Origin: Eledone cirrhosa
Taxonomy: Eukaryota
Assembly: GCA_964016885.1 (NCBI GenBank)
Contig: OZ024756.1
Span: 6,014,001-6,078,000 of the forward strand
DNA: 64,000 bases
Reading direction: 5' to 3'
This document shows, piece after piece, positions 328 to 63,875 of the stretch. The notes beneath the pieces were generated by a model, which was given only the letters and a program-made list of their open reading frames with translations, made no database searches and had not been told where the DNA came from. The first letter of the stretch is position 1. Every line of letters begins with the position of its first letter. The translations under genes and the position numbers were made by a program.

Positions 328-715
328 TTGGTAAACGGAATAGAAAATGCTGACAAATTGTTCACAGTTGAAAAATGGTTTAATTAGGAATAAAAGAGTA
401 TTAGTGATTGTATGGGTTAGTATTCAGTTGTGGTTTTAAGTTTTTAAGTTTTTACCGGTTGCGCATTTCTAAATGCTTTTCAAAAATAATTTTCACGGAC
501 ACTCTATCTCAAAATTATTTTTGAAAAGCATTTAGAAATGCGCAACCGGTAAAAACTTAAAAACTTAAAACCACAACTGAATACTAACCCATACAATCAC
601 TAATACTCTTTTATTCCTAATTAAACCATTTTTCAACTGTGAACAATTTGTCAGCATTTTCTATTCCATTTACCAATATATAATAACATGTGTGTTACAC
701 CTCTATTCTTTTAAC
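328..715. mobile_element. Asymmetric fold-back insertion in (TA)n; 3' end (pLTR-like) of the PLE at 51810-53612
   Basis: Near-perfect inverted arms 328-493 and 511-682 plus a unique tail to 715. The same sequence recurs at 51810-52030 and 53516-53612, flanking a PLE endonuclease remnant. (TA)n on both sides. Confidence 0.85.
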
Positions 716-1069
716 TATATATATATATATATATATATATATATATATATATATATATATATATATATACATATATATATATATATATATGTATATGTAT
801 ATATATATATATATATATATATATATATATATATATATATATATATATATATATATATATATGTATATATATATATATATATATATATATATATATATAT
901 ATATATATATATATATATATATATATATATGTATATATATATATATATATATATATATATATATATATATATATATACAGTAAAACGCAGGGAAGCTATC
1001 TGATATATATATATATATATATATATATATATATATATATATATATATATATATATATATATATATATG

Positions 1070-1292
1070 AACGCGTGTCGCTGAGTTGTTAGAGAATTAG
1101 AATTGGATTCGCAATCGTAAGGTTGTGAGTTCGATTCCTGGACGACCAGGTGATGCGTTATGTCCTTGAGCAAGACACTTTATTTCACGTTGCTCCTTCT
1201 ACCTGGAGTTGCGACCGATGGATTTTATTAGCGCTTGGAAAGACCAACGGAATCATTGTTCCGTCGGTCCGATTTGACGAAAGTCGATCGTT
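1070..1292 (+). mobile_element. tRNA-derived SINE with CORE-like domain
   Basis: B-box-like GAGTTCGATTCC followed by TGTCCTTGAGCAAGACACTTTATTTCACGTTGCTCC. Homologous copies at 33176-33375 (+) and 33728-33940 (-). Confidence 0.8.
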
Positions 1293-1482
1293 CCTTTATA
1301 TATATGTGTGTGTGTATGTAAGGATATATATGTTTATATATATAAATATATATGTATATAATATGTATATATTTATGTATATACAAATAAAATACAAATA
1401 AAATATAGAGTTATCACCTGATATTGATACCCTGAAATTAACAAGCTCAAAGAATAAATACTGAGCATTATAATATTAATAA

Positions 1483-1670
1483 GTGGATTGGCAGTATCGG
1501 TACAGGGCCGGGCGCCATGATTTGAAGCATACAGTTACCTCCCTTTATGATCTGATTTCAAATCCCGCCGAGGTAAACTTTGCCTTTCTTCCTTACGGGG
1601 TCGATAAAATAAAGTACCAGTAATACTATGGGATAATTGCTGGCCTTGTGCCTAAAGTACAAAAAATTAT
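1483..1670 (+). mobile_element. tRNA-derived SINE with Meta-type central domain
   Basis: GTGGATTGGCAGTATCGG head, TTCAAATCCCGCCGAGG B-box region and CTTTGCCTTTC.TCCTTACGGGGTCGATAAAATAAAGTACCAG domain. TSD ATTATAATATTAAT. Confidence 0.85.
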
Positions 1671-1789
1671 AATATTAATATGTGGAGAAGTAAACAGTAA
1701 ATTCTGCGTCTAGAATTAACAGGGTGAAATCTACCCTCGTAATTTTAGACGAAGAATTTACTGTGTTTACTTCTCCACATATTAATATT

Positions 1790-1983
1790 ATAATTGTTTC
1801 TACGTTAGGCACAAGGCCAGCAATTACCCAGTGCATTACTGGTACTTTATTTTATCGACCCCGTAAGGATGAAAGGCAAAGTTAACCTCGGCGAAAATTG
1901 AACTCAGAAGGGCAAGGGCCGTAACTCTATACGTGAAAGCATGGCGTCCGACCCTCTCCCAATGCTGCCAATCCACCGCCCTT
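1790..1983 (-). mobile_element. Meta-type SINE
   Basis: Reverse complement of the same SINE family, with a GGGCGGTGG head variant. Confidence 0.85.
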
Positions 1984-2215
1984 ATTATAATGCTCAGTAT
2001 TTATACTTAGAGCTTGTTTATGTCATGGTATCAATATGAGTTAGTAACTCAATATTTTATTTGTATTTCGGCTCCTTATCTGTTGAGCTTATAAAAATGA
2101 GTGTAAATGGACTATTATTTCTAGCATAACCACTCGCACCATGCATGACTTTCAACGCACGAGGAATATACTTCCGTGAGTTTCTTGTTATAGGTGTTTT
2201 GTATCATTTAATATT

Positions 2216-2307
2216 ATCTCTCGCTGACGAAATGCCTGAGGATCACTTGTTACAAACACAATTTTTTCAGGGCGAAACAGATTAAATCTTTAGTCTGTCC
2301 GAGAGAT
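2216..2307 (+). ncRNA. Type I hammerhead ribozyme
   Basis: Stem I ATCTCTCG/CGAGAGAT (8 bp), core CTGACGA (2224-2230), stem II GCCTGA..TCAGGGC, GAAA (2274-2277), stem III CAGATTAAA/TTTAGTCTG, GTC cleavage triplet. Confidence 0.9.
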
Positions 2308-2475
2308 GAAATCGTTATTGATGCGGTATGTATAGGAAATATTGTACCATAATGTATGCTTCAGTTTAAATATATATAACATTTATGGTGAAGTCTACCC
2401 TCGTAATTTTAGACGAAGAATTTACTCTTTTCTTCTTCTACACACACACACACATATATATATATATAATTATAT

Positions 2476-61237: not shown

Positions 61238-61539
61238 TCCTTTGTCAGTGTTGAACAAACGAGCAACGGTGGTTGCTAGACACTACGGCTTAATACGGGA
61301 TGTTTGTTTACAAACACACCGAGCATCATAATAAATATTCGGTGAATCCATACGTGCATATATATATGTGTGCATGTATGTATATATATATATATATACA
61401 TACTACTGTACGTCGGTATACATATATGTATGTACGTGTACATACTTATATTTAAGTAACAGCCGTACTAAGTGTGGGAAATGAAATATCGTTTCATTTT
61501 TTCCGTTTATATATATATATATATATATATATATATATA

Positions 61540-61698
61540 CCGGGTTCAATCTGGGGTAACCACTGTAAGGTACCTCTATAAATAGCAGAGTACACAAATG
61601 TAATATAATAATGTCTTCTACAGGACTAGAACTGTTTTACTCAGAGGAAATCGTCAGAAAAACCCTGGTCTTTCCTGATGATTTCCTCATATTAAATG
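61540..61698 (-). mobile_element. HHR element of the 20485 family with a decayed core and a short inversion
   Basis: Reverse complement reads CTGACGA TTTCCTCTGAGT AAAA CAGTTCTAGTCCTG TA GAA..GATTGAACCCGG. Inverted CTGATGATTTCCTC at 61675. Confidence 0.72.
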
Positions 61699-61973
61699 AT
61701 ATATATATATATATATATATATATATATATATATATATATATATATATAAACACTTAAGTTAAAAATGTACATCTACATATGTATACTGAAATACTAGTA
61801 TGCATATGAATACATACACGTATACATATGTAGATGTACCAAGTCTTTCACTGGTTACTTTACTGTGAGTATCCAGCTATTCTGTATGTAAACACACGGA
61901 CAAACCGGTTTTTAGAGTCATACTGGTTTTTGAGGAAACACCTTTCCTCTATTATCCAGAAAGCCAGACAAGG

Positions 61974-62018
61974 AATATTGAACTAGTTTCGTTGTTGTTA
62001 CAACTCATCAGCAATATT
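61974..62018 (-). ncRNA. Minimal type I hammerhead ribozyme
   Basis: Reverse complement of the 62625-62669 motif. Confidence 0.9.
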
Positions 62019-62624
62019 TACCTATCTACCGGCCTTTCTGGAGAATCTTAAAAGCACATATCGTTATATGCTTTTTCTATGAAAACTAGTAGTGGGCAGA
62101 CCAATTTGCATACAGTGTGAGTACGTACCGGTTCAACGGAGACGATAAAAACAAATAACGAAACGAAATTAAATTTCGTTTCGTTTGTAACTCACTTTTG
62201 TATGACTGACGCTTAAACACTTAAGTTAAAAATGTACATCTACATATGTATACTGAAATACTAGTATACCGGTTTGTCTGTGTGTTTACATACAGAATAG
62301 CTGGATACTCACAGTAAAGTAACCAGTGAAAGACTTGGTACATCTACATATGTATACGTGTATGTATTCATATGCATACTAGTATTTCAGTATACATATG
62401 TAGATGTACATTTTTAACTTAAGTGTTTAAGCGTCAGTCATACAAAAGTGAGTTACAAACGAAACGAAATTTAATTTCGTTTCGTTATTTGTTTTTATCG
62501 TCTCCGTTGAACCGGTACGTACTCACATTCTATGCAAATTGGTCTGCCCACTACTAATTTTCATAGAAAAAGCATATAACGATATGTGCTTTTACGATTC
62601 TCCAGAAAGTCCGGTAGATAGGTA

Positions 62625-62669
62625 AATATTGCTGATGAGTTGTAACAACAACGAAACTAGTTCAATATT
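62625..62669 (+). ncRNA. Minimal type I hammerhead ribozyme
   Basis: AATATTG CTGATGA GTTGT-AACA-ACAAC GAAA CTAG TT CAATATT. Confidence 0.92.
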
Positions 62670-63174
62670 CCTTGTCTGGCTTTCCGGGGAATAGAGGAAA
62701 TGTGTTTCCTCAAAAACCAGTATGACTCTAAAAACCGGTTTGTCTGTGTGTTTACATACAGAATAGCTGGATACTCACAGTAAAGTAACCAGTGAAAGAC
62801 TTGGTACATCTACATATGTATACGTGTATGTATTCATATGCATACTAGTATTTCGGTATACATATGTAGATGTACATTTTTAACTTAAGTGTTTAAGCGT
62901 CAGTCATACAAAAGTGAGTTACAAACGAAACGAAATTTAATTTCGTTTCGTTATTTGTTTATATATATATATATATATATATATATATATATATATATAT
63001 ATATATATATATATAAATATTACAAGAGAAGTAGATAGATGTAGGTAGGTATACGCAAATACATACATGTATATATATATACATGTATAAATATATATAT
63101 ATATATACATATATATATATATATATATATATATATATATATATATATATATATATATATATGTATATATATAT

Positions 63175-63447
63175 CACAGAAATATAGAGAATCAGTGTTG
63201 CGACGAATGGAATTTATTGGACATATTACAATCGTTTCTCTCGCGACCAGCTCGAGCTTCCATAGAAACAACTGCTTCGTAGAATCAAGACGTATCTGAG
63301 GACCTTGCGATATTCAGAGTCAAGTTCGATCATCACATCGATCGTGCCTCAAGCTAGTCGTCAGAGAAACGATTGTTATATGTCCAATAAATTCCATTCG
63401 TCGCAACATTGATTCTCTTTTTTCAATTGAACCCGGGATAAACTTTA
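63175..63447. mobile_element. Fold-back element with a long-stem-II HHR at 63289-63384 (+)
   Basis: GACGTAT CTGAGGA C CTTGCGAT..GTCGTCAG A GAAA CGATTG TT ATATGTC. The inverted arm gives the better-pairing GTCGCGAG and a GTA site. A related fragment lies at 29745-29787. Confidence 0.72.
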
Positions 63448-63513
63448 TATATATATATATATATATATATATATATATATATATATATAATATATATATA
63501 TATATATATATAT

Positions 63514-63875
63514 GTAGGAGATGATTTTTATTGTAGTACAATAAAGCAATGCAGATATCGGATAAGTAGCACTCTACAGTTTGTAGGACTGAAGTATAAA
63601 TAATATATAAGATCAAAAGATGGTTAAAAGAGTTCCATGTATTTTATTATGCGCATTTCAAAAACAAATATCATCATCGTGAATAGTGCAGTTTTAAATC
63701 AACATATGTTGATTTAAAACTGCACTATTCACAAGTGTGTTTTAACCTTCATATCATGTCTCCCTATTTTATCTGACGAAAACGCAAATGTTATTGCATG
63801 ATGATATTTGTTTTTGAAATGCGCATAATAAAATACATGGAACTCTTTTAACCATCTTTTGATCTTATATATTAT
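63514..63875. mobile_element. Asymmetric fold-back with an intact HHR at 63765-63835 (+)
   Basis: TATTTTAT CTGACGA (about 15-bp stem II) GAAA TGCGCA TA ATAAAATA. Arms about 63600-63678 and 63797-63875; internal perfect palindrome 63679-63732; about 85-nt tail on the left. Confidence 0.88.

Follow-up and report, generated by a model that had tools for sequence, protein, structure and literature searches.

Head-to-head insertions with a one-sided tail in TA microsatellites of Eledone cirrhosa: Penelope-like elements and hammerhead-motif repeats

Pairs of inverted arms standing in runs of (TA)n recur in a 64,000-nucleotide stretch of Eledone cirrhosa DNA (contig OZ024756.1, positions 6,014,001 to 6,078,000 of the forward strand; the whole stretch is called the window below). 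One arm of such a pair typically reaches a full 3ʹ end with a short tail, and the other stops earlier, at an internal TA. What made these structures, and why do the two arms of a single insertion end differently? Our analysis indicated that the structures are real, were made by Penelope-like elements (PLEs) and are mostly of a known kind. We consider it probable that these head-to-head insertions of PLEs and of repeats with hammerhead motifs in TA microsatellites were made when both ends of a (TA)n cut primed reverse transcription, one at the outer and one at the inner end of the tail.

Inverted arms and their ends at TA runs

The window is AT-rich (GC content 22-42% per 2 kb), with very numerous TA arrays and no long intact gene. 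Self-BLAST after simple-repeat masking gave a list of local inverted repeats, of which 21 were chosen and aligned. The selection excluded simple-repeat self-hits, secondary matches within a single structure, a handful of palindromes of 26-45 nt and a 190-bp repeat resembling a short interspersed element (SINE), which was present as three inverted pairs. All end-point counts refer to this single 64-kb window. One outer end was at most 6 nt from a run of at least five TA units in 15 of the 21 repeats. In 14, one outer end was at (TA)n and the other 14-93 nt from a TA run, compared with a mean of 0.36 and a maximum of 5 in 2000 random placements; 14 of 24 fit when the three SINE-like pairs are counted in. 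A hand search added two insertions, 51807-53612, with arms 1.5 kb apart, and 2455-2820, whose right arm is tail only, bringing the total to 16 head-to-head insertions in 13 families. The original prediction, a note made from the letters of the window, had announced asymmetric fold-backs with family-specific cut-offs, enriched at (TA)n, in at least ten unrelated families. These counts bear it out, except that "unrelated" was slightly overstated: the surroundings of the hammerhead motif are similar in families B, D and G, and family P shares 86% identity over 56 nt with the coding element 53640-54847, at the latter's 3ʹ end.

The end points recurred between loci. The short end of family A, ..TTACCAATA, meets (TA)n at 328 and 53612; that of family B, ..TAATATTGTA, at 14561 and 45072; and that of family C, ..TATACATTA, at 3097 and 19863. 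Another copy of family B reads TAATATCGTA at 6477, and a fourth short end of B is near 63929. Every coordinate first quoted was confirmed and the end sequences stand, but 3097 and 6477, which had been listed as fold-backs, are solo arms. Recurrence of the short and long ends was 2/2 and 2/2 in family A, 4/4 and 2/2 in B, 2/2 and 2/2 in C, and 2/2 and 3/3 in F. The cut-offs repeat to the base in A, B and C, solo copies included, and to within a few bases in F. Measured from the start of the TA run, the tail has 40 nt in A (34 past the shared TA letters), 89 in B, 79 in C, 97 in D, 79 in F, 89 in G, 38 in H, 41 in J, 22 in K, 46 in P, 66 in the 466-bp tandem family and about 60 in the 424-bp tandem family. 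Overall, tails span about 20-97 nt, exceeding 60 nt in seven families and being 34-46 nt in A, H, J and P (Table 1).

Seven of the 21 repeats do not fit: 1390-2068, 7934-8054, 19763-19818 (or 19720-19845), 20418-20473, 33169/33945, 45825-46030 and 49858-50165. TA is near both ends of 45825-46030 and 19720-19845, which have no clear tail. The repeat at 1390-2068 is old and extends 370 nt further; the whole fold-back, 1390-2440 (85%), has an element period of about 664 nt and a 190-bp SINE-like copy at the same place in both arms. A hammerhead-like motif with a long stem III is found in it at 2224, and the short-tail rule is not obeyed there. The best Rfam matches on 1614-1844 and 7935-8053 were microRNA families, below the gathering score.

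Fold-back chimeras are a known artefact of long reads, and miniature inverted-repeat transposable elements (MITEs) insert at TA. Both facts would favour an assembly or library artefact, or MITE-like DNA transposons, as the source of the pairs. We give such an origin hardly any credence. The arms have diverged, differing by 0.5-15%, their ends are family-specific and recur between loci, the structures are asymmetric, and one of them is continuous with a GIY-YIG open reading frame (ORF). In addition, reads of four public runs were mapped to 6281-7156, apart from 6468-6517, which contains the short end of B. The search for matching runs listed no RNA run and gave a best word share of 0.32, and organism A need not be the species of the window. 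Strand switches accounted for 5 of the 15 listed joints (of 25), at different internal places, and the joints 6362/6362 and 7052/7053 were present in both raw-read samples, which argues against an artefact. The original prediction had already cited the divergence between arms against one.

Families B and C had very high depth in the reads of organism A, and C, including its tail, was also present under a second organism label. A step in depth and piles of read ends close to the short end of C were set aside, being confounded by RAD cut sites and related families; RAD-seq piles are biased towards particular loci. Reads of family B continue upstream of 6281. The idea that B is a short element with a fixed 5ʹ end was dropped because the copy at 6288 and the reads carry on upstream. 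An exact-pattern scan for family B in metagenome contigs gave 0 matches, and a protein scan gave two loci from 60 candidate stretches; at one of them (L001) the 3ʹ part ends without a TA run or fold-back.

Table 1. Positions of the insertions, solo arms and PLE-related elements in the window
Feature	Position	Strand	Remarks
Family A, tailless arm	329..493	-	joined to (TA)n 288-328
Family A, tailed arm	494..715	+	tail 682-715, joined to (TA)n
Family A, tailed arm, 5ʹ-truncated Neptune-type PLE (by motifs)	51807..53514	-	frameshifted linker and GIY-YIG ORF 52965-53514, 3ʹ region of about 1.15 kb
Family A, tailless inverted arm	53515..53612	+	97 nt, joined to (TA)n
Family B, tailless arm	14562..14742	-	
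Family B, tailed arm	14743..15020	+	89-nt tail; hammerhead core altered to CTGAGGC in both arms
Family B, fold-back	45073..45408		tailless 45073-45251 (-), tailed 45252-45408 (+)
Family B, solo arm ending at short site	6288..6477	+	strict type I hammerhead motif, core 6377
B-related short end	63929..64000	-	cut off by window edge
Family C, fold-back	19866..20177		tailless 19866-20006 (-), tailed 20007-20177 (+), 79-nt tail
Family C, solo arm, short end	3099..3212	-	(TA)n on both sides
Family C, solo arm, long end	6922..7153	+	(TA)n on both sides
Family D, fold-back	18930..19229		tailed 18930-19056 (-), tailless 19057-19229 (+), hammerhead core 19123, 97-nt tail
Family H, fold-back	15286..15415		38-nt tail, right side
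Family F, fold-back	20649..20830		79-nt tail, right side
Family F, fold-back	44827..45043		tail left; arms begin at identical base (centre 44968/44969)
Family F, solo arm, long end	56639..56768	-	
Family J, fold-back	51498..51760		41-nt tail left, centre 5 nt
Family K, fold-back	54869..55012		22-nt tail right, centre 1 nt
Family P, fold-back	60082..60263		46-nt tail left, centre 4 nt; related to 3ʹ end of 53640-54847
Family N, fold-back	63175..63443		tail of about 20 nt right, end alignment uncertain
Family G, fold-back	63514..63866		tailed arm left (89-nt tail), perfect 54-nt central palindrome 63679-63732, hammerhead core 63773
466-bp tandem family, fold-back	61750..62960		tailless 61750-62267 (-, 1.1 units), tailed 62268-62960 (+, 1.5 units), 66-nt tail
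424-bp tandem family	60461..61508	+	2.5 units, hammerhead-like cores 60777 and 61201, long end in (TA)n
424-bp family, head-to-head insertion	2455..2820		tailless arm 2455-2762 (-), tail-only arm 2763-2820 (+)
Decayed coding PLE-like 3ʹ part	53640..54847	+	C-x2-C, VVY and ITEA-like endonuclease motifs by eye; hammerhead-like core 54595; ends in (TA)n
Hydra-type PLE ORF, 5ʹ-truncated (context)	3752..5089	+	adjoins (TA)n; solo, no fold-back

Coding elements and tandem repeats with hammerhead motifs

The PLE origin suggested by the original prediction is supported, since family A runs into a GIY-YIG ORF (Pfam GIY-YIG, E 1.1e-6), directly followed by the tailless inverted arm, and its homologs are proteins with a reverse transcriptase (RT) and GIY-YIG. 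By eye, the linker of this ORF reads CDRPNCGIC (C-x4-C-x2-C); a C-x2-C separates the GIY half from the YIG half, and two His follow later. In the passages of PMC8557442 on classification, a C-terminal GIY-YIG with a CCHH motif and a CX2-5CxxC linker defines endonuclease-positive (EN+) PLEs, and both are found in family A. Ten homologs at E<=1e-10 (43-68% identity, up to 772 aa) are RT/thumb/GIY-YIG proteins; the copy in the window ends before the RT, and the RT and thumb were seen in the homologs. Judged by motifs, without a tree, family A is classed as the 3ʹ end of a Neptune-type PLE. The fold-back at 329-715 belongs to the same family, with both arms shortened and 0-1 differences in 164 nt. 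All 16 insertions, 51807-53612 included, have the inverted 5ʹ-truncated copy beside the main copy that characterises PLEs; with regard to target-site duplications, both flanks consist of (TA)n.

Pfam gave no match to the decayed element at 53640-54847, which we take to belong to the Penelope/Poseidon clade. The ORF at 3752-5089 contains CNCRDRSKC, CDLC and CKH and adjoins (TA)n, matching, as a motif reading without a tree, the definition of the Hydra clade in PMC8557442 (CxCX5C linker, CxxC and CxH, no CCHH, in the passage concerned). At its 5ʹ junction (3694-3779), its first bases (TGATAGA) are found in three 25-nt repeats with TA runs between them, resembling repeated slippage at the 5ʹ join. 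A second decayed Hydra-like PLE ORF at 24430-25330 has similar WYNP..F and linker motifs by eye and no Pfam match.

A descriptor of the type I hammerhead matched strictly at seven places in the window, while shuffled sequences gave a mean of 0.07 and a maximum of 1. Five of the matches are in families B, D, G and 466, and the remaining two are at 37335 and 37962. Near-canonical hammerheads were seen by eye in C, E and 424, and the core in F is truncated. On the minus strand of 37090-37502, three hammerhead-like cores stand in series (37483, 37335 and 37173); the first two are about 148 nt apart and look similar to families G and D, perhaps as a diverged tandem. All three insertions of family F (20649-20830, 44827-45043 and 56639-56768) are cut at or inside a long hammerhead stem II, and so is the tailed arm of B at 45072; RNA structure may halt the RT there.

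Families 424 and 466 consist of tandem units, each with a type I hammerhead motif, the former without an Rfam match and the latter below the gathering score: Rfam HH9 was matched in each arm of 466 (62011 on the minus strand, E 3e-6; 62632 on the plus strand, E 7e-6). In 424, the cores are in successive units and the first stem II pair is mismatched. The longest stop-free frame within the repeated unit has 60 aa in 424 and 62 aa in 466. Being tandem and ORF-free, both families fall within the sequence definition of retrozymes that are not of the long terminal repeat (LTR) type. Their circular folds reached -150 and -126 kcal/mol, compared with -93 and -88 for mononucleotide shuffles, a lenient null. 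Both arms of the 466 insertion are longer than one unit and have an identical period, which indicated that the template was multimeric or circular. The original prediction had extended the mechanism to coding and non-coding elements alike; this was demonstrated only for the 424 and 466 families, and the remaining families without an ORF may simply be the 3ʹ termini of coding PLEs that have their bodies beyond the window.

Proposed priming at two sites and the competing explanations

In the reaction that we propose, the PLE protein, a predicted dimer (PMC11167929), would nick both strands within (TA)n. At the inner site, a UA/AU spot would pair with one 3ʹ end; the outer site would serve as the start for the other, and a single RNA would probably provide both. 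Synthesis of the two cDNAs would end early, often at almost the same base, and blunt joining would leave them head to head. The machinery would also carry the 424- and 466-bp tandem families in trans, as passengers, with multimeric or circular RNA as their template.

Eighteen pairs have (TA)n close to each end. In 16 of them a short arm is combined with a long one, although independent choice of the sites allows at most 50% (p 7e-4). In 11 of 12 families, the element itself shares 2-7 nt with the TA run at the short site, where chance is about 0.25 per site (p 2e-6; N left out, F read by hand). The 5ʹ ends of the two arms were no more than 10 nt apart in 6 of 16 insertions (permutation mean 2.0, p 0.007, with arm lengths set by hand), or in 5 of 16 if G is scored as unequal (p 0.03).

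Short ends on TA letters would also be expected if the insertions had been symmetric at birth and had later lost one tail when the flanking microsatellite slipped or recombined with an internal TA spot. The instability of long inverted repeats counts in favour of such erosion. We nevertheless judge it improbable, as arms with 99% identity are already asymmetric and exactly one tail is missing in the 16 of 18 pairs. Family B, moreover, has a longer internal TA run in its hammerhead stem, about 50 nt further upstream, that no arm uses; 4/4 tailless arms stop at a 2-nt TA.

The main rival is snap-back self-priming with later central deletion. In this scheme, a single cDNA begins at the end of the tail and then folds its 3ʹ end back to use itself as template. 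Copying would run as far as the inner site, where the TA letters allow annealing to the second target end, and the spacers would result from later deletions on one side of the centre. This would account for one tail per insertion, for arms of almost equal length and for short-site microhomology. PMC3846280, in its passage on PLE palindromes, puts forward self-priming as their origin, and, also in favour of snap-back, the perfect 54-nt central palindrome of G adjoins a 65-nt gap in one arm. The centres, however, were blunt: the five junctions for which a reference copy exists (A328, B14561, B45072, C19863 and 424) had 0-1 nt of microhomology, and 466 and D had 0 on the single readable side. The solo arms at 3097 and 6477 end at the short site, which requires priming there, and the inner site is a true start of reverse transcription in vitro in the experiments reported in PMC11167929. 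Either arm may be the longer one, and the tailless arm extends further 5ʹ in five insertions (B45072, C19863, D, F20648 and 424); this objection to snap-back is weakened because central deletions can mimic it, as in G. Taken together, these points make snap-back an unlikely origin, though a less remote one than erosion.

Several results weigh against priming by both target ends at two fixed sites on one RNA. Microhomology at the long end was readable in two families only, with 3 nt and 1 nt. In the in vitro work of PMC11167929, as far as its text on priming goes, the anole PLE began reverse transcription without homology to the cut DNA and without a strand-specific start site. No hammerhead was found when one was looked for in families A, H, J, K and P, the absence in A being the adverse one, and narrow Rfam scans of the 424, D and 37060-37500 regions returned no hammerhead. 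With regard to one or two RNAs, sister arms were closest to each other in B14561 (1/178 vs 4-5/178), not in C or F, and the arms of 466 differ at 11/518 positions vs 1/279 within an arm (p 0.07). The evidence comes from one window with 2-4 copies per family, seven families being single-copy, and central deletions after birth could obscure which arm was longer.

We propose more tentatively, as something that may well prove too general, that PLE integration is a coordinated twin-priming: one RNA would offer two fixed start sites, each used by a different end of the break, with the TA primer base-pairing at the inner one. Animal retrozymes would enter the genome through precisely this PLE reaction, with multimeric or circular RNA as template.

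Neighbouring repeats, known systems and significance

Among the other repeats of the window, the 190-bp repeat, presumably a tRNA-like SINE, is found at about 18 places within 1483-59184, often in head-to-tail tandems (26918-27300, 28551-29090 and 48225-48775), and its edges are TAA-rich sequence, not (TA)n. A second SINE-like family of about 220 bp is at 1070-1292, 33169-33376 and 33725-33945, two of its copies forming a 74% inverted pair 356 nt apart. Minisatellites occupy 38436-42962 (39-nt units), 57951-58970 (30), 43415-43937 (33) and 27715-27975 (28). Pieces of another retroelement at 49487-49725 and 55202-55824, with a peptide resembling a non-LTR RT on the minus strand, are presumably of the long interspersed element (LINE) type. 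Families E and N, otherwise dissimilar, have in common a TTGAACCCGG-like motif right before the TA run (20480-20618, 61540-61700, 63175-63443 and about 20190-20210).

LINE-1 retrotransposition is known for twin priming, in which both target ends prime cDNA, the second by a short match inside the RNA; the position of that second site varies, and no duplication of the inverted part results. The insertions described here differ in having two fixed sites and overlapping arms that form an inverted duplication.

The closest likeness is to EN+ PLE units (Penelope/Poseidon, Neptune, Naiad and Hydra). The descriptions of these units in PMC8557442 and PMC3846280 include 5ʹ-truncated copies, an adjoining inverted 5ʹ-truncated copy, a tail at one end, a junction palindrome, hammerheads and, in Hydra and Naiad, a bias for (TA)n. 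The passages of PMC8557442 concerned give a tail of 30-40 bp, often at one end, whereas tails here have 20-97 nt and exceed 60 nt in seven families. Most units here are two short 3ʹ ends without an ORF between them, and the rule of one short and one long arm was counted here. PMC8557442 also describes non-autonomous Chlamys elements with pseudo-LTRs (pLTRs), and names as open the origin of tandem and inverted PLE units and of the one-sided tail.

For PAc (Poseidon of Anolis carolinensis), the experiments presented in PMC11167929 revealed cutting and extension of both DNA strands in vitro, an AT-rich target, and two adjacent, fixed internal start sites that bound the tail downstream of a hammerhead that stayed intact in the RNA being copied. 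That account leaves the steps beyond priming unvalidated. PAc starts without target homology or strand difference, unlike the insertions here, whose inner site shares 2-7 nt with (TA)n and which use one site per target end. Two fixed priming points and targeting of (TA)n, the core of the original prediction, therefore fit the data and were already in print (PMC11167929, PMC8557442). As the inverted copy, the one-sided tail, (TA)n targeting, nicking of both strands and two start sites have all been published, what had been offered as an inference is mostly known.

Metazoan non-LTR retrozymes, as portrayed in the relevant parts of PMC7761336 and bioRxiv 10.64898/2026.07.22.740005, resemble the 424 and 466 families in their tandem, ORF-free units, type I hammerhead motifs and strong circular fold. 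The units here are longer than the roughly 150-300 bp stated there for animals, and they stand in PLE-type head-to-head insertions with a one-sided tail, absent from the passages on retrozymes. Both sources propose PLEs as retrozyme partners from co-occurrence and phylogeny; PMC7761336 reports, in its treatment of this partnership, no motif pointing to the partner, and the word "tail" is absent from the main text of the preprint. The text of PMC13282606 on Octopus vulgaris, which lists 31 recently active PLE families, leaves hammerheads unmentioned. A literature search, with most subscription journals outside its scope, found no paper in which the two sites are used in a coupled way, the inner site pairs with TA, or retrozymes are inserted head to head with a tail.

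This study adds tails of up to 97 nt, blunt centres, retrozyme-like passengers, microhomology of the short site with the TA run, and a count of how the two priming sites are coupled. The counts of one start site per target end, of TA pairing at the inner site and of blunt centres yield direct predictions for the existing in vitro assay. Short fold-backs of this kind are easily misfiled as MITEs, SINEs or microRNA hairpins. The 424 and 466 insertions are footprint evidence for the mobilisation of retrozymes by PLEs, which has been proposed but not demonstrated. If the broader proposal is true, the one-sided tail would be a genomic signature by which any unclassified short repeat could be assigned to PLE mobilisation.

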